A DNA stretch of 64,000 bases, taken from contig JBBIML010000006.1 in the NCBI GenBank assembly GCA_037444405.1, forward strand, positions 177,438-241,437. The letters are read 5' to 3'. Source of the DNA: Armatimonadota bacterium (GTDB lineage Bacteria > Armatimonadota > Fimbriimonadia > Fimbriimonadales > GBS-DC). Positions 1 through 58,384 of this stretch are shown piece after piece (position 1 is the stretch's first letter; each line of letters starts with the position of its first letter). Made by a program: the position numbers and the translations under genes. The notes under the pieces were generated by a model. The model searched no databases and was not told where the DNA came from. It worked only from the letters and a program-made list of their open reading frames with translations.

Positions 1-10
1 CTTAACCCTT

Positions 11-1030
11 TTGTCTACACCACCCACTGCCTCGACACAACCAAGTTCTTCAACGACATATATTTCTATCGATATTAATGATATTAATTCAAATATAATA
101 AATGAGTGGCATATCGATTTCGGTCAACGATCAGTTCTATTTAAGAAGATTAAAGATGACACGACCCAACAAACACCCAAGAGGCTTCGCCCCATTGTAA
201 AGTCAGAACCCATTAAACAAGCTGCCTATGATGGCACGCGGTGGGTTATCATACTGGACGACTATCACCATCCGCTCAAACTACCTGAATATGACTGGCG
301 GTATCAAGTGATCTTGCTTGGTAGCCTCGAAGAGGGTATAAAGGTGATTAATAGGATTGAGAGTAGCGACCTGCTCCTGCCTTTGTTCGGACTTCATCGA
401 GCCTATCTGTTTGCTGAAAATAATATAGACAGTTTAATAAAAGTTAATAAAGCTCTTAATGTTGAAGGGATACCGAATGGGTGGAGAGTAGAGACAGTTG
501 GAGTTGATCGGATAAATGGATATGAATGTTACAGAATCCGAGCTTCTAACCCCAATCTGCAATCCACAGTCTGGCTCTGGTTCTGTCCTAACTTGCAGAA
601 TCGGTGTGTGCGCGCGGAAGCTCTGGTATCTGGCAACATTAAGGTCAATGGACAGCCCGCATCATTTGCAATCGCTGCTGAGATAACAGAGTGGGCTACT
701 GAAGACTTCAAAATCCCCATGCCCAGAAAATTAAAGATTACGAGATATTTTCCATCTTCTAAATCGGAGTATATCCTGTTTGATCGTGTTGAAGCGACTG
801 TTCGCTATCTGAAGCCGATAGCCGAGCATGAGTATCATCTTTCGATTCCGACTGATTCGGCGCATGTTTCAGACAACATCAATAACCGTGTTTATACCGT
901 CGGTAAGATGGTTCCCATCGCCCCCCGCAAATCGCTGGTAGTGCCCGCACTGATTGCAGGCTCAGTCATAATGGCGCTGATAGCCATTTTCGGCTTACGC
1001 GCTTACAGGAGGTGGGCTTACCGTGGATAA
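11..1030 (+). CDS. Hypothetical envelope protein with a C-terminal TM anchor. The ORF is open to the left window edge, so it may be 5'-partial. The middle region is weakly reminiscent of LolA/RseB-fold lipoprotein-sorting-like proteins.
   Basis: Long ORF in a clearly AT-richer region. C-terminal hydrophobic stretch VVPALIAGSVIMALIAIFGL followed by basic residues. No upstream stop between position 2 and the TTG at 11. Its 3' end overlaps the next ORF by 8 nt. Confidence 0.5.
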   Translation: MSTPPTASTQPSSSTTYISIDINDINSNIINEWHIDFGQRSVLFKKIKDDTTQQTPKRLRPIVKSEPIKQAAYDGTRWVIILDDYHHPLKLPEYDWRYQVILLGSLEEGIKVINRIESSDLLLPLFGLHRAYLFAENNIDSLIKVNKALNVEGIPNGWRVETVGVDRINGYECYRIRASNPNLQSTVWLWFCPNLQNRCVRAEALVSGNIKVNGQPASFAIAAEITEWATEDFKIPMPRKLKITRYFPSSKSEYILFDRVEATVRYLKPIAEHEYHLSIPTDSAHVSDNINNRVYTVGKMVPIAPRKSLVVPALIAGSVIMALIAIFGLRAYRRWAYRG

Positions 1031-2054
1031 ACGGAAGGTGTTGATGAGCTTGCCTGCGGTCCTCCTATTGTTGCTGATTGGAGTGACCACCTATTGGTGG
1101 ATAACGCGATCATCCACAGCGTCACGATCATCAGCAGATGAGCTACCTGTGTTCGCGACATCCAGAGTATCGATTGGTAATCGGTTTGAAGAGGATCATA
1201 CCTATACAGATGTTAAATTCGTAAACAAAACAAATCTCACATGGCGAGTGAAAAGGGTACTTTATTCCTGTTGTGGAAACACGGAGCAATACTATCGCTG
1301 GCAGCCTGAAGTTGTTCCTCCTGGCGCCACTTTGCAAGTGCATGCCCGACTGGACTTTTCGGGGCATCTGGCAGGTGTTGCAGAGAGAGCTTTTGTGCAG
1401 ACCTTCTGGGTGGAGGTGGAAACGGATGGCAACCCCCGAAGAGGCTTTCTTGTCGCGGAAGTTGAGGGGGTTCAGAAGAACTGTCTTCCTGACGCTCCTC
1501 TGTATCTGCATCTGAAATCATCCAAGCCAGGCACATTATCTTACAGCCTCCATCCAGAAATCAATCTGCAAGACATCAAGGTATCTACAACCTTGCCATG
1601 TCTGCGGGCTTTTGTCGACACCCAGCAGAGACAATTGAGGATCAAATACTATCCTGTTGATAAAGACTATTCTGGAAAATTAATCATAAAAGATAAAGAA
1701 GGAAATATAGTTCGTACAATTGTTGTTGCAATTATGCCTGCGGAACGAATCCTCATAACTCCCCGCTTATTAGGATTTGGATTGGTTGATAAAAACAAAA
1801 TTTATAGAAAATATTTAAGATTAAATCTTGGAAAAATTTTGCAATATCATAACGAGATAAGGCTCCTTAATCCTGTATCGCCTGCGGGCAGGTTCCGAAT
1901 CGCTGACATCGAGCGCGAGAACCAATCGGTGCTTTTGACAATTGAGTTTGTGCCGCATACTGATGGCGTCCATCGAGGGAAGCTCAGAATTCAAGCAGGC
2001 AAAACGGCTCTCGATGTACCGTGGAGCTGCGAAACCGTGCCTGCCTCGCGCTAA
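1023..2054 (+). CDS. Membrane-anchored hypothetical protein with DUF1573-like (Ig-like) repeat features.
   Basis: N-terminal TM/signal anchor LPAVLLLLLIGVTTYWW. The segment VKFVNKTNLTWRVKRVLYSCCGNT...VPPGATLQVHARLDF resembles the DUF1573 pattern (SCGC motif followed by xPG). AT-rich codon usage like the preceding ORF. Confidence 0.5.
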   Translation: MDKRKVLMSLPAVLLLLLIGVTTYWWITRSSTASRSSADELPVFATSRVSIGNRFEEDHTYTDVKFVNKTNLTWRVKRVLYSCCGNTEQYYRWQPEVVPPGATLQVHARLDFSGHLAGVAERAFVQTFWVEVETDGNPRRGFLVAEVEGVQKNCLPDAPLYLHLKSSKPGTLSYSLHPEINLQDIKVSTTLPCLRAFVDTQQRQLRIKYYPVDKDYSGKLIIKDKEGNIVRTIVVAIMPAERILITPRLLGFGLVDKNKIYRKYLRLNLGKILQYHNEIRLLNPVSPAGRFRIADIERENQSVLLTIEFVPHTDGVHRGKLRIQAGKTALDVPWSCETVPASR

Positions 2055-3488: not shown

Positions 3489-3529
3489 CCCCTCTCCCCC
3501 ACTGGGGAAGAGGGTACGGGTGAGGGGGC
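3488..3529. repeat. REP-like nested palindromic element, copy a.
   Basis: gcccctctcccccactggggaagagggtacgggtgagggggc lies between the convergent radA and membrane-protein genes. It is the near reverse complement of the element at 58343-58384. Confidence 0.6.
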
Positions 3530-16852: not shown

Positions 16853-17083
16853 TCATTTTAAGCCCTTCTGGGCTACAATCTTAGCATGATGGAACGGCAC
16901 CGTTCACTCGTGGAACAGATGGAGACTTGCTTGCGCCAACTTTTGGACACCGAAGCCGACACCCTCGCCCAGCAAATCGGGTTTGTCCAGCGCCAGCGCA
17001 AACTCACCGGTGTGTCGGCGTCGGAGGCGTCCTGCGACCTTTCAGTTGCTGCTTGGGGAGGGAGGCTTAAATTGATGCCAATG
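16853..17083 (+). mobile_element. MITE-like miniature derivative of an IS4-family element, copy 1.
   Basis: 231 bp that re-occur in inverted orientation at 21578-21808. It carries a truncated ORF (MMERHRSLVEQMET...IGFVQRQRKLTG) resembling the N-terminus of IS4-type DDE transposases. The right terminus is ggcttaaattga; the left terminus is degraded. Confidence 0.6.
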
Positions 17084-17685: not shown

Positions 17686-19731
17686 ATGAGTGCGTTCGTT
17701 CCGCTGACAGGGGTGCAACTACCGCACACCTGCCGCCGTCGCAAGACGCGCGAGGTCCGGGTGGGCGATATCGGGATTGGGGGGAACAATCCCGTCCGTG
17801 TGCAGACAATGATCACCGCCGAGACGATGAACACGCTCGCCGCCGTCGAGCAGATTATCCAGCTCTACGAGGCGGGCGCGGAAATCGTGCGCGTCACCGC
17901 GCCTAACCTGCGCGAGGCACAAAACCTCGGCGAAATCAAAGCCGAACTGCGACGGCGCGGCTACGGACATATCCCGCTCGTCGCCGATGTGCATCACCAG
18001 GGCATGGAAATCGCCCTCGAATGCACCAGACATGTGGAAAAGATTCGCATCAATCCGGGGCTGTTCGTGTTCCGCAAGCCTGACCCCAGCCGCGTGGAAT
18101 ACAGCCAGAGCGAGATTCAGCAGGAGCTAGAAGCCATCGAGCAGGCGCTCCTGCCTGTGATCCGCGCCTGCAAGGAGCGCGGCGTCGCCATGCGCATCGG
18201 CGTCAATCACGGCAGCCTCTCGGAGCGCATCAAGGTGATGTACGGCGACTCGCCCGTCGGAATGGTCGAATCGGCATTAGAGTATATTCGCATCTGCGAG
18301 GCGCACGGCTTCAAAGATATCGTCATCTCGCTCAAGGCAAGTCGCGTGCCCGTGATGCTCTCGGCAAACCGCCTGATGGTGGAGCGCATGAACCAGCTGG
18401 GCATGGACTATCCCCTGCATCTGGGCGTGACAGAGGCGGGCGACGGGATGTATGCCCGTATCAAGAGCGCAATCGGCATCGGCACCCTGCTGGCGGAAGG
18501 CATCGGCGACACCATTCGCGTCTCGCTCGCCGAAGACCCGCTGAACGAGATCGAGGTGTGCTACGACATCCTGCAGGCGCTGGGACTGCGCAAGACCAAA
18601 GTGGAATATATCGCCTGCCCCTCCTGCGGACGCACCAAGTTTGACCTGCCAACCGTGCTGAACCAGGTGCGCGAAGCCACCAAACATCTGGTGGGACTGG
18701 ACATCGCCGTGATGGGCTGCCTGCCATCCGACCAGCCCGTGATGACCGAGTCGGGGCTGAAACCCATTCATCGGATTCAGGTGGGCGAGCGCGTGCTAAC
18801 CGAGCAGGGCACGCTGGAGCCTGTATCCGCCATCGAGAGCCATTCATTCGAGGGCGAGCTGATAGAGATTGTGCCGCGCGGCGCACCGCCCCTGCGCCTG
18901 ACGCCCAATCACCCCGTGCTGGCGCTCACCCGCTCCTGCACAATTAAAGGCGACCGACCACGCTGGCAAAACATGGCAGACCTCATCAATCGCTGGCAGG
19001 AAGCACGCTGGTACCCGGCGCAGGAGATTACCCGCAATCATGTATTGCTCTACCCTGTGCTGAAAGAGAACCAGATATCGGAGCGCGTTCCTGACGAACC
19101 AAAGCAGATTATCGAATACCTGCAGAAGCTCTGGCGGTGTGATGGCTATTGTGGGGTGGTCCGAGGCTATCCGTGTGCCAGCTATGTGACGGTTTCGCCA
19201 GCGCTCGCCTTTGTCGTTCACCAGTTGCTTCTGCGGCTGGGGATACCAGCGTCGCTGACGGTCAGGCAACCTGCAAACCGCCAGCGTACATACATCATCA
19301 GTGTCACCAGCGGCGATGGGCTGCGGCGATTCGCCGACCGCCTTGGCTTCAAGGTGGAAGTGCCTGAAAGCCGTCAGCGTACGGGGCAGCTCGCGCTCGA
19401 TTCACGCTACCTCTATCTGCCCGTTGCAGCAGTGAGGCGCCTTCCCTATCGGGGCACGGTTCACAATCTGGAGGTGGCGCACGCGCACACCTATGTCGGC
19501 TCACTCTGCGTGGTGCATAACTGCATCGTGAACGGACCAGGCGAGATGGCGGATGCAGATTATGGCTATGTGGGGCGCGGGTCGGGTAAAATCGCGCTCT
19601 ATCGCAAAGGGCAGCTCGTTAAAAACGATATTCCTGCCGAACGCGGCGTGGAAGAGCTGATCGCGCTGCTCAAAGCCGATGGCGTGTGGCGCGATCCGCC
19701 AGCAACCAATCACAACGATGGAGGTCAATAA
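17686..19731 (+). CDS. ispG: 4-hydroxy-3-methylbut-2-enyl diphosphate synthase (IspG/GcpE) interrupted by an in-frame intein.
   Basis: The exteins carry IspG motifs: [27 protein letters not shown], and VMG followed (after the intein) by CIVNGPGE. Extein length without the insert is 413 aa. Confidence 0.9.
18718..19521 (+). other. Intein (268 aa) within ispG, with a probably degenerate LAGLIDADG-type endonuclease core.
   Basis: It starts with Cys in a block-A-like [13 protein letters not shown]. Block B is TPNHP, and blocks F/G are [21 protein letters not shown], followed by a +1 Cys. It interrupts the otherwise contiguous [11 protein letters not shown] motif. Confidence 0.8.
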
Positions 19732-21040: not shown

Positions 21041-21577
21041 TCCCGAGCAGGGAGAAATACCCTTGCCTCATCGCGCTCGTCGGGATGGAGACGCGGTAAG
21101 CGATTGACGAACCGCATTGCTGGGTAATCTGCTGAACCGCCTGACGCACCGCAGGCAGCTGGGGGTCGTTGCTGCGGCAGGGGATGGTCACGGCATATGC
21201 GGCTCGTAACCCGGCATCCCGGGCGGGGCACTGGTTGTCCAGAACGGCTTGCAGTGGTCGAACATCAATTTGAGCTGGCGCTGAACCAGCTCTGCCACCG
21301 TCTCAAATGTTCAGCTCGTCGGGTCGGGTGCGATGCTCCTTACCGCTGGGGTCGGTCCAGATGACGATGGCTTGCAATGTTGGATCGTCGGCGTAGACCG
21401 CGCGGCTCCTGACCTCACGCGAAGGCAGAGCCATCGCCAGGCTCAAGAATCTGAACCGATTGCGCCATTGCGCTGTGCAGGGCGCCAGCGAACACCCCTG
21501 CTAACCATAGTCGGACATACCCGCGCACGCAATCCCCTCCTATTTGCAGGGGATTATACCAGTCAGCGGCGCGGGTC

Positions 21578-21808
21578 CATTGGCATCAATTTAAGCCTCC
21601 TTTTCCAAGCGGCAACTGAAAGGTCGCAGGACGCCTCCGACGCCGACACACCGGTGGGTTTGCGTTGGCGTTGGACGAATCCAATTTGTTGGGTGAGGGC
21701 GTCGGCTACAGCGCCGAGGCGTTGGCGCATGCGAGTTTCCATCTGTTCCACGAGGGAGTGGTGTCGTTCCATCATGCTAAGATTATAGCCCAGAAGGGCT
21801 TAAATTGA
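21578..21808 (-). mobile_element. MITE-like IS4-derived element, copy 2 (inverted relative to copy 1).
   Basis: It matches 16853-17083 in reverse complement. The first ~45 nt and last ~85 nt are nearly identical and the centre has diverged. Termini tcaatttaagcc / ggcttaaattga form a perfect 12-bp TIR, extendable to ~20 bp imperfect. Confidence 0.6.
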
Positions 21809-21949
21809 TCAATGACCCCAGTTTAGCCCCTATCAAGGGGTTCGGCGGGCGTCTGGTTGTCAGGTGTGATTGGCGCCTCCCGCATAAGCAGAACAAAGCG
21901 TCGAGCGGCAGGAACCTCATCACCAACGCTGTATTCTGACAGAGTTATC

Positions 21950-23944
21950 ATGCACGCTGATGACCTGATGAGGCTGTTGCGGGAGCGGTTCGGGTTTGAG
22001 TCGTTCCGCGAAGGACAGCAAGAGGCGATTCAGGCGGCGCTGGAGGGCAAGCGGGGGCTGCTGATTCAGCCGACAGGCTGGGGCAAGAGCCTGGTGTATC
22101 AGATGATTGCCGCCCTGCGCGGGCTGACGCTGGTGTTCTCGCCCCTGCGGGCGCTGATGCGCGATCAGGTGCGTCAGGCGTGCGAGCGCTATGCCCTGCG
22201 CGCCGATACCGTCAACTCCGATATGAGCCTCGAGGATCAGCAGGCGGTGCTGGAACGCGCCGCAGCGGGCGAGCTCGACCTGCTCTATATCGCGCCTGAA
22301 CGACTGGGCAACCCACTCTGGCAGGACCATCAGCAACAGCTGCCGATCCGCGCGGTGGTCATCGACGAGGCGCACTGCGTCTCCATCTGGGGACACGATT
22401 TCCGTCCCGAATATCGGCGGATTGTGAACCTGGTGCGTCTGTTACCGCCCGAGGTGCCCGTGGTCGCGGTGACGGCGACCGCCACACCCCGCGTCGAGCA
22501 GGATGTGCGCGAGCAGATTGGCGAGCCGTTCCACATTCTGCGGGGCTCGCTGATGCGCCCTAACCTCTGCCTCTATGTTCAGCCCGTGCAATCGGACGCC
22601 GAAAAGCTTGCCTGGGTGGATCATCTGCTCGGTCTTCTGCCTGGCAGCGGGCTTGTCTACACCGCGACGCGCGCCAGCTGCGAATGGCTCGCCCAGTATC
22701 TTCAGCAGCGCGGGCACGTCGTGGCGCACTACCATGCCGGGCTGGGTGCGGAGCGCGCCGCCCTCGAACAGCGCCTGATTCAGAACGACCTCAAAGCGCT
22801 GGTCTGCACGAACGCGCTCGGCATGGGGCTGGACAAACCCGACCTGCGCTTCGTGATTCATGCCGAGACGCCCGCCTCGCCCCTGCACTACTATCAGGAA
22901 ATCGGGCGGTCAGGTCGCGACGGCGAACGCTCCTACTGCATCCTGCTCGCCCATCCCGACGATAAGACCCTGCAAACCAGCATGATTCGCACCAGTCGCC
23001 CGCCTCCCGACGCTTATCAGCAGGTGTATCAGCTGCTTCAGCAACAGCCGATGCGCGAGCGGGAGCTGGCGCTCCACACCGGGCTGACCCAGAACAGCCT
23101 GCGCACGATCCTGTATGACCTGATGGATCAGGGGCTGCTGGTGCGCGACAGCGAGCGGTACTACCGCGCCACAGGGCATGGTGCCATCGATCACAGCCAT
23201 TATCAGGTGGTGCTGGACGCGAAGCTCAACGATCTGGAGGCGATGATTGCCTACTGGCATCTGCGCGAGTGTCGAATGCGCTATCTGTGCCGCTTTCTGG
23301 GCGATGCGACCGCAGCGGCGTGCAGTCGGTGCGACCGCTGCCGACGGCGACGGCTCGCGCCGCCCGACCCAGCCCTGATAGTGCAGGCGGAACGGTTCGC
23401 CTATCACCCACCACTGATTCTGACGGCGGTTTATCAGAAGGAGCAGATCTACGCGATGGGCTTCGCGCTGAGCTACTATGGGGGCACACCTGTCGGGGAA
23501 GCTATTCACCAGTGCAAATATGCGGACGGCGGCGCACTGCCCGATTGGGCTATCCAGCAGGCGGCGGTGTTCCTGCGCGAGCGGTTCCCGCTACAGGCGA
23601 TTCACGCGCTGGTGCCCATCCCGCCCAGCATCAGCGGCGGCTTCGTTGAGGAGTTCACGGCGCGATTAGCGGCGCAGCTCAACCTGCGCTTTCTGCCGAT
23701 TCTGCGCAAGACGCGCCCCACACGCCCGCAAAAAGACTGGACGAACAGCGTTCAGAAAGCGGAGAACCTGCGCGACGCCATCGAATGTGTCCAGCCCCTG
23801 CAGGGCGAGTGCCTGCTGATAGTGGACGATGTGTGCGATTCGGGCGTGACGCTGGAGGTGGCAGGTAAAATTTTGAAGCGAGCGGGCGCAGGCACGCTCT
23901 ACGCCTTCTGTTTAGCCCGCACCCGCCATCGGGGTGATTTGTGA
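21950..23944 (+). CDS. RecQ-family DEAH helicase fused to a C-terminal ComFC-like phosphoribosyltransferase domain.
   Basis: Helicase motifs QPTGWGKSLVYQ, VIDEAHC, VTATAT and QEIGRSGRDG, plus the RecQ Zn cluster CRMRYLC...CSRCDRC. The C-terminus shows a ComF/PRT pattern (ALVPIPPS, RKTRPTRPQK, ENLRDA, LLIVDDVCDSGVTL, LART). Confidence 0.8.
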   Translation: MHADDLMRLLRERFGFESFREGQQEAIQAALEGKRGLLIQPTGWGKSLVYQMIAALRGLTLVFSPLRALMRDQVRQACERYALRADTVNSDMSLEDQQAVLERAAAGELDLLYIAPERLGNPLWQDHQQQLPIRAVVIDEAHCVSIWGHDFRPEYRRIVNLVRLLPPEVPVVAVTATATPRVEQDVREQIGEPFHILRGSLMRPNLCLYVQPVQSDAEKLAWVDHLLGLLPGSGLVYTATRASCEWLAQYLQQRGHVVAHYHAGLGAERAALEQRLIQNDLKALVCTNALGMGLDKPDLRFVIHAETPASPLHYYQEIGRSGRDGERSYCILLAHPDDKTLQTSMIRTSRPPPDAYQQVYQLLQQQPMRERELALHTGLTQNSLRTILYDLMDQGLLVRDSERYYRATGHGAIDHSHYQVVLDAKLNDLEAMIAYWHLRECRMRYLCRFLGDATAAACSRCDRCRRRRLAPPDPALIVQAERFAYHPPLILTAVYQKEQIYAMGFALSYYGGTPVGEAIHQCKYADGGALPDWAIQQAAVFLRERFPLQAIHALVPIPPSISGGFVEEFTARLAAQLNLRFLPILRKTRPTRPQKDWTNSVQKAENLRDAIECVQPLQGECLLIVDDVCDSGVTLEVAGKILKRAGAGTLYAFCLARTRHRGDL

Positions 23945-24822
23945 AGATGGAAGAGCGCGAGTGGGTCTACTGGATGCTGATGGCTCATTCCGACAGTCGT
24001 GCCCTACGCCAGCGGTTCCGCGACCAGCAGCCGCAGGATGTGGGCGCGTTTCTGCGTGACCAGCCCGAATGGGCGCAGATGGAGGCGCAGCTGGCGCAGG
24101 AGGCGCTGACCCTCCACGAGTTCTTGCAGCAGGGCGGGCTGTTCCTGACCCTCTACCATCCGGGCTATCCTGAACGGCTGCGCCTGACAGCCTCGATACC
24201 CCCGCCGCCAGTGCTGTACGCGCTGGGCAGTCTATCCCTGCTCGACGCCCAGCCGCTGGTCGCCATCGCTGGCTCGCGCAACGCCTCCCGCCAGGCGCAG
24301 GAGGCAACCCCCGCCGTCGTTCAGCAACTGGTCGCGCAGGGCTACGGGATTATCACAGGCTTCGCGAAGGGCGTCGATCAGATGGCTGCCCGCACCGCGC
24401 TGGATGCAAATGGCATCACCATCGGCGTGCTGCCGCAGGGACTGCTGTCCCGACTCACCCAGCAGCTCGCGCGCGAATGGATGGAGCCACTGAACGACGA
24501 CCGCCTGCTGTTCCTCTCGGAGCTGCATCCCCGCGCCGAGTGGTCACCGCGCTTCGCCATGATGCGCAACCGCCTGATTGCCGCCCTCGCCGAGTTCGTG
24601 GTGATTATCGAATCGGGCGCCCGCGAATCGCAAAAGAACGGCAAAACGGTGTTGAGCGGCACCTATCAGTGCGCCGAGATTGCACACCGGACGGGTCGCC
24701 CCGTGTATGTGCTGGACCTGCCCGCGCCAGGCAATCAGCAGCTCCTGCAGGAGGGCATCGCCCGCCCCTGGCAAGGACACCATGCAGCGGCGCCGTCGGA
24801 GCAACCGAACCTTTTCGAGTAG
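23941..24822 (+). CDS. Divergent DprA/Smf-family (SLOG-fold) DNA-processing protein. Its start overlaps the upstream stop (GTGA).
   Basis: LVAIAGSRNASRQA...GYGIITGFAKGVDQMAARTALDANGITIGVLPQGL...FAMMRNRLIAALAEFVVIIES follows the DprA Rossmann-domain pattern. The usual SGSLITA segment is replaced by a longer insert. Confidence 0.7.
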   Translation: MKMEEREWVYWMLMAHSDSRALRQRFRDQQPQDVGAFLRDQPEWAQMEAQLAQEALTLHEFLQQGGLFLTLYHPGYPERLRLTASIPPPPVLYALGSLSLLDAQPLVAIAGSRNASRQAQEATPAVVQQLVAQGYGIITGFAKGVDQMAARTALDANGITIGVLPQGLLSRLTQQLAREWMEPLNDDRLLFLSELHPRAEWSPRFAMMRNRLIAALAEFVVIIESGARESQKNGKTVLSGTYQCAEIAHRTGRPVYVLDLPAPGNQQLLQEGIARPWQGHHAAAPSEQPNLFE

Positions 24823-24922: not shown

Positions 24923-25012
24923 GCCCCTCACCCCTACTCTCTCCCCAGCAGGGAGAGGGAGTTTATCAGCCCCTCTCCCCCGCCTGTGAGGGAGAGGGTG
25001 CGGGTGAGGGGG
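24923..25012. repeat. REP-like nested palindromic element, composite copy b.
   Basis: An outer inverted repeat (gcccctcaccc...gggtgagggggc) encloses two inner hairpins (ctctcccc-agca-gggagagg and ccctctccc...gggagaggg). It lies between convergent genes. Confidence 0.6.
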
Positions 25013-25061: not shown

Positions 25062-26141
25062 TCAGCCGACGCGGCGCCAGCGCAGGTAGAGGGCGCTGCC
25101 GCCCATCATCACTATCAGGATAGTAACGGTGCCCGGTTCAGGCACGCCGTCGCCGCCCCAGTTGCTGCCTGCACCCCACCGGTCGATCCGAACCCGCAAA
25201 AACACAGGCGCATGATCGGAGGCGCTCGGGCTGTCGTTAATATCAAACCCATCTGGCAGCATGCCCTCTGGAAAACGGCGCGTGTTAAATAAAATCGCCT
25301 CCAGGATAGTAATCCGATCGCGTCCCAGCTCCACCTCCGAAGTGAGCAGGTAATCGAACCGATTGCGCAGGTCAGAGTTGCGCGTCGTCACTTTATAGGT
25401 GCGCTTGCCGTCCAGCGCGTCGACGGGTATATGGTCGCGCAGGCGAGCCGACTTAACGGTGCTGATGGGCGCGTAGGTGCGTCCGTCGGGCAGCGTGCCA
25501 CCGATATCGAACAGCGAGTTCAGGTCGGGGTCTTCGTTCTCGTTCAGGTCGCCGCCCAGCACATAGGCGGAGCGTCGGTGCTGGAGTCGCCATCGGCGCA
25601 CCTCGTCGCGCGTGCGCTCGGCATTCGTCTGGCGTTTGACCGCATCGTTGGTGTAGCCGCCCGCCTTGAAATGCGCCCCAAAGATGCCCAGTCCGTTCGT
25701 GCCTGGCACATCCACCCAGCCGATGGTCAGTCCCCGATTGGGCGAGCCAATGTTCACATCGCCAATCTCCAGAAACCGATAACGGCTGATAACGGCGGAG
25801 CTGATCCAGCCGTCGCTGTTGCGGTTCACATAAACATAAAAGTCGACGCCGGGCTGCGGATTGGCGCCATAGTAGGTGAGATGGGTCTGCACGAAGCTGA
25901 TAAGCGCAGCTTCCTGTGCAGCGGGGTCCCAACCCGATCTGTTGCCACCCACCTCGTGCAGAAGCCAGATGTCGGGGCGGAGATAGTTGGCAATTCTGGC
26001 GACATAGGGTTGCGCCGCGCTGTTGGGTTCGTTCGCGCCGATTGCCCGCCCGATGTTCCAGCTCATAATGCGCAACTCTGTCGCCCACGCGCCCGTTAGA
26101 AGCCAGCCGAGCGCCAGCACCACGCCGTATCTCGCTTTCAT
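25062..26141 (-). CDS. Secreted endonuclease/exonuclease/phosphatase (EEP) family protein with a PEP-CTERM-like tail.
   Basis: Signal peptide, then EEP motifs (IMSWNI, LHEVG, GGDLNE, SDHAPV). The C-terminus is VPEPGTVTILIVMMGGSALYLRWRR. Confidence 0.75.
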   Translation of the reverse strand: MKARYGVVLALGWLLTGAWATELRIMSWNIGRAIGANEPNSAAQPYVARIANYLRPDIWLLHEVGGNRSGWDPAAQEAALISFVQTHLTYYGANPQPGVDFYVYVNRNSDGWISSAVISRYRFLEIGDVNIGSPNRGLTIGWVDVPGTNGLGIFGAHFKAGGYTNDAVKRQTNAERTRDEVRRWRLQHRRSAYVLGGDLNENEDPDLNSLFDIGGTLPDGRTYAPISTVKSARLRDHIPVDALDGKRTYKVTTRNSDLRNRFDYLLTSEVELGRDRITILEAILFNTRRFPEGMLPDGFDINDSPSASDHAPVFLRVRIDRWGAGSNWGGDGVPEPGTVTILIVMMGGSALYLRWRRVG

Positions 26142-34643: not shown

Positions 34644-37600
34644 TTGATGGTGGCGGAGGCGGTGGCGCACTATCTGGAGCGTCTGCAGGCGATTCAGGGG
34701 CAGGCGCAGGCGACGGGTGAGCTGTCCTATCATCACGCCCTGCATGAACTGCTCATCACACTCGCCCAGCCGCAGGGCGCCACCCTCCTGCATGAGCCAC
34801 GCAAAACAGTCGTGGGCAGACCCGACTTCATTCTGCTCCGCAACGGGATGCCCATCGGCTATCTGGAGGCGGAGGCGTTCGGCGCCGACCTGGACGCCCT
34901 GCAGGGGCACGCGCACCAGCAAACCCGCGCGTTTATCCAGAATTTAGACAACTTTGTGCTGACCAACTTTCTGGAGTTTCGGCTCTATCGGGACGGCGAG
35001 CTGCAGGCGCGAGCAATGCTTCCCGCCCCGCCCGCGCGCGAGACGGTGCGCCTGTTCCCCGACGCGGTGCAGGCTCTGAAAAGCCTGCTGGAGGCTTTTC
35101 TGCAGGGCGAGCCACCCGCGATTGCCGACCCCCAGACGCTGGCGCACTATCTGGCGCGGCGCACCCGCCAGCTCACCGCCGCGCTCGAAACCCTGCTCGC
35201 GCAGAAAGCGGAGACCGACCTGCATAGCCTCTACCGCGCCTTTGAGCGCACGCTCTTGCCCGACCTGAAGCCCGAAGAGTTCGCCGACCTCTACGCACAG
35301 ACGGTTGCCTACGGGCTGTTCGCGGCGCGATGCGCTCAGGCGGATGGCAACGCCTTCAGCCGTCAGTCCGCTGCCATGCTCATCCCGCCCACCAACCCCT
35401 TCCTGCGCCGACTGTTCCAGCTGCTTGCCGCGCATGACCTGCCGCCCACCATCGCCTGGATTGCCGACGAGATTGCCACCCTGCTCGCCCGCGCCGATAT
35501 GCTCGCGATTCTGGAAAACTTCGGGCAACGCACGGGCAAAGAAGACCCCATCGTGCATTTCTATGAGGACTTCCTTGCTATCTATGACCCCGAACAGCGC
35601 GAGATTCGGGGCGTCTACTACACGCCCGAACCTGTCGTGCAGTTCATCGTGCGAGCTGTCGACGATGCGCTGCGCCTGTTCTTCGGCAAATCGCATGGGC
35701 TGGCTGATGACGAAACGCTGATTTTAGACCCCGCCTGCGGCACGGGCAGCTTCCTGTATGAGGTGGTTCAGCAGGTGCATCGGCGCGTGGTGGGGCGATT
35801 CGGTGGAGGCATCTGGCGCGATTACGCCCGCGAGAGGTTAATCCACCGCCTGTTCGGCTTCGAGCTGCTGATGGCGCCCTACGCGATTGCCCACCTGAAG
35901 CTGGGACTACAACTGCAACAGCTCGGTGTGCCGCTCAACAGCCAGCGGCTGGGCATTTATCTCACCAACACGCTGGAGCAGGCGGTCAAGCAGAGCGAGC
36001 TGCTGTTCGGCGAGTTCATCACCCGCGAAGCCAACGCCGCAGTCGCCATCAAGCGCGAGAAGCCCATCCTGGTGGTGCTGGGCAACCCGCCCTACAGCGG
36101 GCACTCCGCCAATCGGAGCTACCATGAATATGAGGAGCGCGACGAGCAGGGACGAATCCGCAAGCGACGCGAACCCACATGGATTGGCAAACTGATAGAA
36201 GACTACAAGCAGATCAACGGTCAGTTGCTGGGGGAGCGGAACCCCAAATGGCTGCAGGATGACTATGTGAAGTTTATTCGCTTCGCCGAGTGGCGCATTC
36301 AGCAGACGGGCGAGGGCATCGTCGCGCTAATTACCAACCACGCCTATCTGGACAACCCCACCTTCCGCGCGATGCGCCATCATCTCCTGCAGAGCTTCCA
36401 GCGGCTCTATATCGTGAACCTGCACGGGAACGCGCGGCGCAAGGAGCGCGCGCCCGACGGCTCGCCCGACGAAAATGTGTTCGACATCCAGCAGGGCGTC
36501 GCGATTCTGATAGCGATTCGGCGGGCGGATGCGGAGCCGGGCGTTTTTTATGTGGATGTGTGGGGGCGGCGCGCGGAGAAGTACGCCTTTTTGCAGGAGC
36601 AGACGCTGGAGCGCGCCGCGTGGACGCGCCTGGAGCCGTCCGAGCCACTCTATCTGTTCGTGCCGCAGGACACCGCGCTCAAAGCCGAATATCAGCAGGG
36701 CTGGCGCATCCCTGATATTTTCCCCGTGCATAGCGTGGGGATTGTAACGGCGCGCGATAAGCTCACCATCCACCGCACGCGCGAAGCCGTGTGGCAAACG
36801 GTGTGCGAGTTCGTGAAGTACGAGGCGGAGCAGGCGCGGTATCTCTTCAAGCTGGGCAAAGATGCGCGCGACTGGTCAGTGGCGCGCGCTCAACAGGACC
36901 TGCGCGATGCAGGGGTTCCCAACGAAAGCGCGAAGGCGCATATCATCCCCATCCTCTATCGCCCCTTCGATGTGCGGTACACCTTCTATACGGGACGGGA
37001 TTGCGGCTTTCACTGCAGACCCCGCTACAAAGTCATGAAAGAACTGCTTGCAGGTGATAATCTGGTGTTGATCACTGTGCGCCAGCAGTCGCGAATGCAG
37101 GACCCCTGGGCGAACGCATTCGTTGCTCAAACGCTTGTGGAGAGCTGTGCGCTTTCAAACTACACGCGCGAAATTGGCTATGTATTTCCCCTCTATATCA
37201 CCCACACGAATAATCACAGGAACAACAATCATAAAAACAACAGGGATCAGAACGCGCTGGATGGGCTGGAGGGGCGCGAGCCGAACCTGAATCGGGAGTT
37301 CTGGAACGCGCTGGCGCAGCGCATCGGCGAGAAGCCCACGCCTGAGGCAATTCTGGGCTATATCTATGCGGTTCTCAACAGCCCCACCTATCGCGCCCGC
37401 TACGCTGAGTTCCTGCGCCGCGACTTCCCGCGCGTGTCCCTGCCCCGCGATAAAGAGCAGTTCGAACAGCTTGCCCATCTGGGACAGCAGCTGATTGACC
37501 TCCACACCCTGCGCCGTCCAGGACATCACGAAGTGAGCTGCCGATACCCTGTGGAAGGCGATAATCGCGTTCAGAAAGTGCGCTATGATGAGGTGAATCA

Positions 37601-37814
37601 GCGACTCTACATCAACGCGGAGCAGTTTTTCGCGCCTGTGCCGCCTGAGGTGTGGGCGTTCCGCGTGGGTGGTTATGCCGTGTGTGAGAAGTGGCTGACC
37701 GAACGGCGCGGGCAGAAGCTCTCGCTGGACGAACGCCTCGACTTCCTGCGCATCATCACGGCGATTGCAGAAACCCTGCGCCTGCAGGCGGAGATCGACT
37801 CGTGGCTGGAGTAG
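34644..37814 (+). CDS. Large stand-alone N6-adenine DNA methyltransferase with a type-ISP/IIG-like C-terminal specificity region.
   Basis: SAM motif LILDPACGTGSF and catalytic motif LGNPPYSG. The C-terminal GGY.V.EKWL..R.G..L pattern is typical of type ISP/IIG target-recognition ends. No helicase or recognisable nuclease partner lies nearby. Confidence 0.8.
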   Translation: MMVAEAVAHYLERLQAIQGQAQATGELSYHHALHELLITLAQPQGATLLHEPRKTVVGRPDFILLRNGMPIGYLEAEAFGADLDALQGHAHQQTRAFIQNLDNFVLTNFLEFRLYRDGELQARAMLPAPPARETVRLFPDAVQALKSLLEAFLQGEPPAIADPQTLAHYLARRTRQLTAALETLLAQKAETDLHSLYRAFERTLLPDLKPEEFADLYAQTVAYGLFAARCAQADGNAFSRQSAAMLIPPTNPFLRRLFQLLAAHDLPPTIAWIADEIATLLARADMLAILENFGQRTGKEDPIVHFYEDFLAIYDPEQREIRGVYYTPEPVVQFIVRAVDDALRLFFGKSHGLADDETLILDPACGTGSFLYEVVQQVHRRVVGRFGGGIWRDYARERLIHRLFGFELLMAPYAIAHLKLGLQLQQLGVPLNSQRLGIYLTNTLEQAVKQSELLFGEFITREANAAVAIKREKPILVVLGNPPYSGHSANRSYHEYEERDEQGRIRKRREPTWIGKLIEDYKQINGQLLGERNPKWLQDDYVKFIRFAEWRIQQTGEGIVALITNHAYLDNPTFRAMRHHLLQSFQRLYIVNLHGNARRKERAPDGSPDENVFDIQQGVAILIAIRRADAEPGVFYVDVWGRRAEKYAFLQEQTLERAAWTRLEPSEPLYLFVPQDTALKAEYQQGWRIPDIFPVHSVGIVTARDKLTIHRTREAVWQTVCEFVKYEAEQARYLFKLGKDARDWSVARAQQDLRDAGVPNESAKAHIIPILYRPFDVRYTFYTGRDCGFHCRPRYKVMKELLAGDNLVLITVRQQSRMQDPWANAFVAQTLVESCALSNYTREIGYVFPLYITHTNNHRNNNHKNNRDQNALDGLEGREPNLNREFWNALAQRIGEKPTPEAILGYIYAVLNSPTYRARYAEFLRRDFPRVSLPRDKEQFEQLAHLGQQLIDLHTLRRPGHHEVSCRYPVEGDNRVQKVRYDEVNQRLYINAEQFFAPVPPEVWAFRVGGYAVCEKWLTERRGQKLSLDERLDFLRIITAIAETLRLQAEIDSWLE

Positions 37815-58342: not shown

Positions 58343-58384
58343 GCCCCCTCACCCGTACCCTCTCCCCCACTGGGGGAGAGGGGC
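58343..58384. repeat. REP-like nested palindromic element, copy d, with a partial extra unit to about 58413.
   Basis: gccccctcacccgtaccctctcccccactgggggagaggggc is the reverse orientation of copy a. Confidence 0.6.

Follow-up and report, generated by a model that had tools for sequence, protein, structure and literature searches.

An Armatimonadota member of the RqlH-RqlI (PsyrTA) family, very probably a toxin-antitoxin-type defence pair

The stretch of DNA analysed here, hereafter the window, comprises 64 kb of an Armatimonadota (Fimbriimonadales) contig, with positions counted from its first letter. On its forward strand lie two adjacent genes, the first (ORF A; ORF, open reading frame) encoding a RecQ-like helicase fused to a phosphoribosyltransferase (PRTase) domain and the second (ORF B) a DprA-like protein, which together are an added member of the already named and profile-detectable RqlH-RqlI (PsyrT-PsyrA, or PsyrTA) system; the combination itself is not new. 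We consider it very likely that the pair forms a co-translated two-gene toxin-antitoxin-type module of the kind catalogued as anti-phage defence. The features on which this reading is built are the following.

21950-23944, forward strand: rqlH (psyrT), putative toxin component, 664 amino acids, start ATG 21950, stop TGA 23942-23944; identified by PADLOC PsyrT, Pfam, TIGR00614 and an AlphaFold2 (AF2) model.
21950-22990, forward strand: superfamily 2 (SF2) ATPase/helicase core, residues 1-347; Pfam DEAD 21-183 and Helicase_C 225-325, sequence motifs, Foldseek.
22991-23194, forward strand: RqlH-specific linker, residues 348-415, with a predicted winged helix at 353-407 (three helices and a beta-hairpin, AF2).
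23195-23347, forward strand: RecQ-type zinc-binding module, residues 416-466; Pfam RecQ_Zn_bind 423-465; C441, C458, C461 and C464.
23369-23929, forward strand: ComF-like, type I PRTase domain, residues 474-660; Pfam Pribosyltran 569-660; loop VDDVCDSGVT, residues 625-634, for binding phosphoribosyl pyrophosphate (PRPP).
23931-23949, forward strand: gene junction, with a Shine-Dalgarno (SD)-like GGGGTGA at 23931-23937, GTG 23941, the rqlH stop TGA 23942-23944 and ATG 23947.
23947-24822, forward strand: rqlI (psyrA), putative antitoxin component, 291 amino acids (293 if counted from GTG 23941); identified by PADLOC PsyrA, Pfam, AF2 and Foldseek.

The most direct evidence for this identity comes from the PADLOC profiles. 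The PsyrT model (PDLC03928) matches ORF A with E=7.1e-218, residues 5-661 aligning with positions 7-687 of the 689 in the model, and the PsyrA model (PDLC03927) matches ORF B with E=1.6e-50, covering only positions 31-296 of 398; among the PADLOC profiles PsyrA is the best match to ORF B, ahead of ShosA (9e-35). A preliminary description of this DNA, made without database searches, had left the choice between a DNA-uptake or recombination module and a nucleotide-centred defence system, and it is the latter option that gains support, as a defence or toxin-antitoxin system, from profiles that call the pair directly. Membership of the family is established because the PsyrT and PsyrA profiles, the RqlH architecture, the catalytic residues, the gene order and the coupling of the two genes all agree with what has been published for it. 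Thus, the features that set the RqlH clade apart are present in ORF A (RecQ-like SF2 ATPase motifs, the clade-specific linker ahead of the zinc domain, and a ComF/PRTase-like C-terminal domain with no HRDC), and so are those of the PsyrTA or RqlHI pair, namely a full-length PsyrT match, a PsyrA-type DprA-like protein, the order of the genes and the acidic loop that binds PRPP.

Within ORF A the helicase core, the zinc module and the PRPP-binding loop are intact in a single chain. Pfam recovers DEAD (E=5e-25) and Helicase_C (3e-19), TIGR00614 recQ_fam scores 310.7 bits against a cut-off of 219.8, and Pribosyltran reaches 29.8 bits over residues 569-660 against a cut-off of 26.3; together with RecQ_Zn_bind, these matches uphold the initial view that one polypeptide combines a RecQ-type helicase with a ComF-type phosphoribosyltransferase domain. 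Residues 348-421 attract weak helix-turn-helix (HTH) or winged-helix matches, and neither HRDC nor RQC is among the Pfam matches on ORF A. The open frame extends upstream to a TTG at 21857, and this longer start was rejected on the grounds that close homologues begin at the same methionine as ATG 21950.

Alignments of 12 and of 37 RqlH homologues were used to ask which residues are invariant. Across the 37 homologues the helicase retains Q23 (motif 0), TGWGKS42-47 (motif I), DEAH139-142 (motif II), TATA175-178 (motif III) and QEIGRxGRD316-324 (motif VI, which reads QEIGRSGRDG in the window), while C441, C458 and C461 of the zinc domain are equally invariant, so that the helicase motifs and zinc-binding cysteine cluster reported at the outset are indeed there. 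The fourth cysteine, C464, is present in the window protein, its place being taken by aspartate in relatives such as a Bacteroidales protein. In the PRPP loop D626, D627, D630 and G632 do not vary among the same homologues, and D627-V-C-D630 aligns with the DIVD motif of E. coli RqlH (VDDIVDSG).

The AF2 model places the whole chain of RqlH in one confident structure (predicted local distance difference test score, pLDDT, 89.3; predicted template-modelling score, pTM, 0.84), laid out as a helicase core at residues 1-347, a winged helix at 353-407, a zinc module at 416-465 and a C-terminal domain at 474-660. Foldseek matches this model best to the catalytic cores of RecQ proteins, for example 4tmu with a root-mean-square deviation of 2.4 A over 466 columns, that is, over the first ~466 residues. 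Since RecQ cores fill the whole-chain Foldseek list, the phosphoribosyltransferase assignment draws on the sequence profiles and on the way strands and helices alternate in the model; when the C-terminal domain is searched by itself against the Protein Data Bank (PDB), adenine phosphoribosyltransferase (APRT) chains appear at E about 0.003 and ShosT weakly. The domain is thus consistent with a PRT fold, as judged from profiles and a predicted structure.

That the fusion might be an assembly or frameshift artefact, joining a helicase gene and a comF-like gene that are separate in reality, was a caveat raised in the preliminary description, and it has a practically negligible probability: an identical protein is encoded in an independent assembly (Logan SRR11582170, L001), thousands of full-length database proteins share the helicase-PRTase architecture across phyla, and the single confident model spans the chain from end to end.

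The partner, RqlI, is recognised by Pfam as DNA_processg_A (E=4.5e-40) and as a member of SLOG cluster 4. Its AF2 model (pLDDT 93.3) consists of a five-helix N-terminal domain at residues 3-61, a Rossmann/SLOG domain at 64-268 and a disordered tail ending in PNLFE, and the best Foldseek match of this model is ShosA 8zva (E=3.6e-16), followed by the DprA structures 3uqz and 3maj. The protein ends ~20 residues beyond the Rossmann domain, and neither DprA_WH (PF17782) nor any other C-terminal HTH or winged helix was detected in ORF B by Pfam, PADLOC or in the AF2 model. Of the two peculiarities that the preliminary description had ascribed to this DprA-like protein, the missing winged helix therefore stands, whereas the SGSL region is not replaced: it reads SGT and follows ~10 inserted residues (RESQKNGKTVL), for which a beta-hairpin is predicted at 227-236. 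The GSR, (S/T)G-A-x-G-(I/V)-D and RNR motifs of canonical DprA are likewise retained.

RqlI-like proteins, the short ones and the long HTH-bearing ones alike, end, behind a disordered stretch, in a conserved Q-x(2,3)-L-F(-E/D) tail, which in the window occupies 24757-24819 (residues ~271-291). Modelled as disordered, this tail could act as a docking peptide for the helicase.

The junction between the genes allows two starts for rqlI, GTG 23941, whose GTGA overlaps the rqlH stop, and ATG 23947, 2 nt past that stop. The overlap had been taken at first as the point of translational coupling; the GTG does exist and the genes are tightly coupled, but the ATG is the better supported start and the one we prefer, because the gene callers use it (291 amino acids), homologues begin MEEREW or MDEREW, and its spacing from the SD-like sequence fits better, with GTG 23941 still a possible alternative. 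In related genomes rqlH and rqlI either share 4 nt or have a 2-nt spacer between them. As read from these sequences, the coupling of the two genes is tight with either start, and this tightness is conserved among the relatives.

The biochemistry of RqlH comes from one bacterium. RqlH of Mycobacterium smegmatis defined the clade (Ordonez, Unciuleac & Shuman 2012, PMC3378886) as a RecQ-like ATPase at residues 1-346, followed by a linker of ~90 amino acids, a tetracysteine domain at 435-499 and, with no HRDC, a ComF/PRTase-like C-terminal domain; it is a DNA-dependent ATPase and 3'-5' translocase/helicase that does not need the C-terminal domain for its helicase activity (PMC3378886). The window protein shares the ATPase, the ~90-residue linker, the tetracysteine zinc domain, the ComF/PRTase-like domain and the absence of HRDC, and it differs in being the paired form, whereas M. 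smegmatis, as nearly all Actinomycetota, has RqlH without RqlI.

The paired form was characterised in extraintestinal pathogenic E. coli F11, in which rqlH lies directly upstream of rqlI in one operon (Russell & Mulvey 2015, PMC4670107). RqlH alone causes SOS induction, filamentation and growth arrest, a toxicity that requires the PRTase domain and its PRPP pocket, as tested by the D663A and DIVD-to-EVME substitutions, the DIVD mutation abolishing it; the DprA-like RqlI binds and neutralises RqlH, and its C-terminal HTH is dispensable for doing so (PMC4670107). Toxicity, neutralisation, the physical interaction and protection from phage are known solely from E. coli, P. syringae and further homologues that have been tested. 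The RqlHI pair is the same as PsyrTA (Sberro 2013) and is listed, with its sister system ShosTA, among the anti-phage toxin-antitoxin systems (Millman 2022, bioRxiv 10.1101/2022.05.11.491447). The preliminary description had allowed that the fused arrangement might prove to be common and already characterised as ordinary competence genes; common and characterised it is, but as a toxin-antitoxin or defence pair.

The window and the F11 operon encode the same two proteins in the same order and in tight coupling, RqlH comprising in both the helicase, linker, zinc module and ComF-like PRTase with an intact PRPP loop, and RqlI the N-terminal helical and Rossmann domains of a DprA-like protein. Compared end to end, the window proteins are 33% (RqlH, E=9e-109) and 32% (RqlI, E=2e-28) identical to those of a retrieved E. 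coli pair. The differences concern mainly RqlI, which has 291 amino acids in the window as opposed to 400 in F11 (462 and about 441 in two retrieved E. coli pairs), lacks the C-terminal HTH, and carries the hairpin insertion of ~10 residues ahead of SGT; the host and the setting differ too, an armatimonadote with housekeeping genes around the pair as against restriction-modification (RM) operons and integrase islands. Since E. coli RqlI can act as an antitoxin without its HTH, and short forms occur commonly among the relatives, we do not regard this region as a core defining feature of the family. Membership in PsyrTA is unbroken by the minor local deviations, namely an RqlI that has no HTH, its hairpin insertion, its conserved C-terminal L-F tail and the presence of the pair throughout the order.

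If it behaves as its characterised homologues in E. coli and M. smegmatis do, the window RqlH would translocate 3'-5' on single-stranded DNA (ssDNA), its PRTase domain, if unrestrained, would be genotoxic in a manner that needs PRPP binding and leads to SOS induction and filamentation, probably through disturbed nucleotide or DNA metabolism, and RqlI would bind RqlH and restrain it. By analogy with ShosTA, phage infection might then free the toxin, either through ssDNA or replication intermediates or because host expression is shut off and the antitoxin runs low, and the freed toxin might halt the replication of both cellular and phage DNA in the infected cell.

ShosTA, for which structures (PDB 8zva, 9vzo) and a PRPP-dependent DNA-damaging mechanism are available (PMC11961720, PMC12961424), is also the system that the earlier account had mentioned as a DprA-PRTase anti-phage module. 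The likeness lies in the DprA-fold antitoxin, a SAM-like N-terminal domain followed by a Rossmann domain, and, at the level of the system, in a PRTase-domain toxin that needs PRPP binding and in DNA damage with filamentation. In contrast, ShosT has a pyrophosphatase domain and no helicase, and the two ShosTA proteins reportedly do not interact, unlike RqlH and RqlI of E. coli, which bind one another. An assignment of the window pair to ShosTA itself was rejected, as ShosT matches residues 544-661 of ORF A only (6.5e-9) and ShosA is a weaker match to ORF B than PsyrA.

Other identities were tried and set aside in the same manner. The DpdF models of PADLOC, from the Dpd system of 7-deazaguanine DNA modification, match the helicase core with E-values down to 1.9e-110; yet NF041063 gives 201.5 bits against a cut-off of 550, the resemblance is confined to the RecQ-like core, and no dpd genes are found among the neighbours. 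Canonical RecQ, DprA and ComFC have in common with the pair the helicase core and zinc module, the Rossmann fold of DprA and the PRT fold. Nevertheless, the RecQ equivalog TIGR01389 attains 362.3 bits against a cut-off of 640.2, over residues 8-361 only and with no HRDC; the dprA model TIGR00732 attains 113.8 against 191.15 and PRK10736 74 against 495 bits on ORF B, which has no DprA_WH; and comF TIGR00201 attains 23.3 bits (5e-5) against 233.55, in a match restricted to the last ~85 residues of ORF A, where GntX (NCBIfam; 1.5e-10) is also partial, with 41 bits against 304.

These same scores bear on the other option of the preliminary description, which drew on ComFA, ComFC and DprA: the pair would be a compact natural-competence module, the fusion replacing both ComFA and ComFC and ORF B serving as the DprA that passes incoming ssDNA to RecA. 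The fold of ORF B is that of DprA and the closest named sequence relatives of the PRT domain are the ComF/GntX proteins, both of which such a module would display; the comF, GntX and dprA scores nevertheless fall far short of their cut-offs, ORF B has no DprA winged-helix domain, the helicase is of RecQ type and not of the DEAD-box type of ComFA, the pair has no comEA, comEC or pilus genes beside it, and the homologues that have been characterised are a toxin and its antitoxin, not competence factors (PMC4670107). We therefore hold a role in competence to be highly improbable.

How far the arrangement is conserved was surveyed with one genome per species, giving 80 loci, the count being taken over the 71 in which RqlH is full-length and sequence is available downstream of it. 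A DprA-like gene lies directly downstream of rqlH in 33 of these 71 genomes, the two genes being, with few exceptions, -8 to +13 nt apart, and almost all of the remaining 38 are Actinomycetota, a split that reproduces the distribution between Gram-negative and Gram-positive bacteria published in 2015 (PMC4670107). The downstream DprA-like proteins range from 308 to 485 amino acids, short forms of at most 330 amino acids occurring in several phyla. Most of the source records annotate these proteins as RecQ and DprA.

Two loci depart from the usual pattern. According to the published rule, rqlH is always upstream of rqlI and the genes often overlap (PMC4670107); in a metagenome-assembled genome (MAG) of Chloroflexota (L017, 5268-5870) the DprA-like gene is directly upstream of rqlH and so constitutes an exception. 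A homologue of 926 amino acids (P0076) combines RQC and HRDC with the PRTase domain, thereby joining the classical C-terminal domains of RecQ to the PRT module of RqlH.

In E. coli, whose copies were retrieved by way of a Providencia homologue, 1678 of 5426 complete genomes carry the pair. In an ST131 strain (L088, NZ_CP051609.1 3119517-3123034), as in many other E. coli genomes, it interrupts a type I RM operon, lying between hsdS and hsdR (hsdM-hsdS-rqlH-rqlI-hsdR); in others it resides in a tRNA-Thr integrase island beside SLATT and RelA/SpoT-like genes. Near full-length matches to the family were found in four records of a plasmid collection, all of them megaplasmid- or chromosome-sized replicons, and no full-length relatives were found in phage records.

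The closest relatives of the window pair belong to Armatimonadota/Fimbriimonadales MAGs, with 65-80% identity for RqlH and 49-72% for RqlI, the latter range covering the closest homologues and the related loci examined, and all six Fimbriimonadales genomes examined contain both genes. The flanks are different in each of the six, being made up of nos genes, flagellar genes, motAB, glyQ, an IS630 transposase that directly adjoins the pair in one genome (L087), and others. The pair looks as though it relocates as a unit over evolutionary time and is yet long resident in the lineage.

Within the window the genes upstream are dnaG, rpoD, ispG, a thioredoxin-like gene and dapF, and those downstream encode an EEP-family protein, a P-type ATPase and AtpB (atpB). 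The G+C content at third codon positions (GC3) is 0.77 and 0.81 for the two genes, as compared with 0.72-0.84 for nearly all neighbouring long ORFs, so that the codon composition is native. An accessory origin, as suggested in the preliminary description, is in consequence weakly supported: the flanking repeats and the flanks that vary between related genomes speak for it, while the native GC3, the housekeeping neighbours and the occurrence in all six genomes speak against it.

Several observations weigh against reading the pair as a defence-type toxin-antitoxin module and are best considered together. The RqlI of the window lacks the C-terminal HTH region present in the PsyrA model and in E. 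coli RqlI (residues 320-400); many Gram-positive bacteria have RqlH without RqlI, and there it is considered a repair helicase (PMC4670107, PMC3378886); and PsyrTA gave no detectable protection in its native E. coli host against the phages tested. Moreover, the neighbourhood is one of housekeeping genes and not a defence island, the only further defence gene that PADLOC reports in the window being a type IIG RM enzyme ~10 kb downstream (34644-37814, forward strand; 1056 amino acids; REase_MTase_IIG, E=1e-273; Pfam N6_Mtase and Type_ISP_C), and nearby ORFs of unknown function having no PADLOC match. With its native codon composition and its presence in every Fimbriimonadales genome examined, the pair has more the look of a long-established resident of the genome than of a mobile cassette for defence.

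These points can be accommodated by supposing that the pair is a domesticated housekeeping module for repair or recombination, in which RqlH is the RecQ-type helicase of Fimbriimonadales, as has been suggested for mycobacteria without classical RecQ, RqlI is its ssDNA-binding or RecA-loading partner and regulator, and the toxin-antitoxin behaviour is a by-product of mis-expression. Besides the order-wide presence at the identities given above, the native GC3 and the housekeeping flanks, this supposition can call on the absence of any second recQ-like or dprA-like ORF from the 64-kb window, on the near absence of full-length relatives from plasmids and their absence from phages, on M. smegmatis, whose genome has no RecQ and in which RqlH is a bona fide 3'-5' helicase (PMC3378886), and on ShosA, which binds RecA and ssDNA and aids the repair of damage (PMC11961720, PMC12961424). 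It is at odds, however, with flanks that differ in every genome, since these imply that the pair moves as a unit, with the IS630 transposase and the repeat elements found beside it, with the strict conservation of the PRPP loop, which speaks for selection on the toxic activity, and with the accessory character of the family in E. coli. On balance we judge domestication unlikely, and the toxin-antitoxin-type defence pair remains the reading that we favour.

[quoted passage not shown] Were this true, a toxin-antitoxin or defence pair would have become fixed across an order as a core function of genome maintenance.

Two further elements flank the pair and are given as context only.

24924-25011, no strand assigned: palindromic G+C-rich element resembling repetitive extragenic palindromes (REP) or miniature inverted-repeat transposable elements (MITE), with 29-nt arms that are 79% complementary, between rqlI and the convergent EEP gene.
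21578-21808, reverse strand: copy of a 231-bp repeat, lying within the gap upstream of rqlH; inverted relative to 16853-17083 and 87% identical to it (blastn, alignment).

An arm of the palindrome recurs at 3505-3526 (reverse strand) and 58346-58367 (forward strand). The gap upstream of rqlH (21041-21949) is 909 nt long and is without any ORF that matches a family. Where a MITE remnant and a decayed region were initially proposed, the sequence shows a palindromic element and a gap holding a repeat copy. The two copies of the 231-bp repeat, 16853-17083 on the forward and 21578-21808 on the reverse strand, bracket the segment with ispG, the thioredoxin-like gene and dapF. Each copy has a TAnAAT box just 5' of an ATG and encodes the same N-terminal peptide of ~55 residues (MMERH.SLVEQMET...QQIGFVQRQRK.TGV...), after which the frames diverge; this small repeated ORF found no match in Pfam, NCBIfam or a tblastn search of plasmids. 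It may resemble the N-terminus of an IS4-family transposase, and the repeat may be the remnant end of an insertion sequence. A scan of the forward strand upstream of rqlH for sigma-70 promoters yielded nothing, such a scan being uninformative for this phylum.

Some observations on the surroundings of the pair are recorded here in their own right. The ispG (GcpE) gene at 17686-19731 on the forward strand is interrupted by an intein that includes a homing endonuclease of the LAGLIDADG type: the match to GcpE falls into two parts, LAGLIDADG_3 matches at 474-554, Hint and Intein_splicing match weakly, and the boundaries read C-LPSD ... VVHN-C; the related genome with the IS630 transposase (L087) has an intein in MutS. 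The EEP-family protein encoded at 25062-26141 on the reverse strand, convergent with rqlI, is signal-like at its N-terminus and carries a PEP-CTERM-like sorting tail at its C-terminus (…VPEPGTVTILIVMMGG…RWRR). At the edge of the window (1-2054) two forward-strand ORFs, 11-1030 and 1023-2054, have a GC content of about 0.45 and a GC3 of 0.44, as against roughly 0.62 and 0.78 elsewhere in the window, and have no Pfam or PADLOC match; this segment looks like a foreign low-GC islet.

The consequences of these findings are first of all a matter of annotation, beyond which their importance is little. The correct labels for the two proteins are RqlH and RqlI (PsyrT and PsyrA), not RecQ and DprA, and the pair should be counted neither as evidence for natural competence nor as the RecQ or the DprA of its genome. 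The documented range of PsyrTA is hereby extended to Armatimonadota, and with an HTH-less RqlI of 291 amino acids and confident models of both proteins, the pair could offer a convenient minimal system in which to study the target of the PRTase and its restraint by a DprA-like partner.

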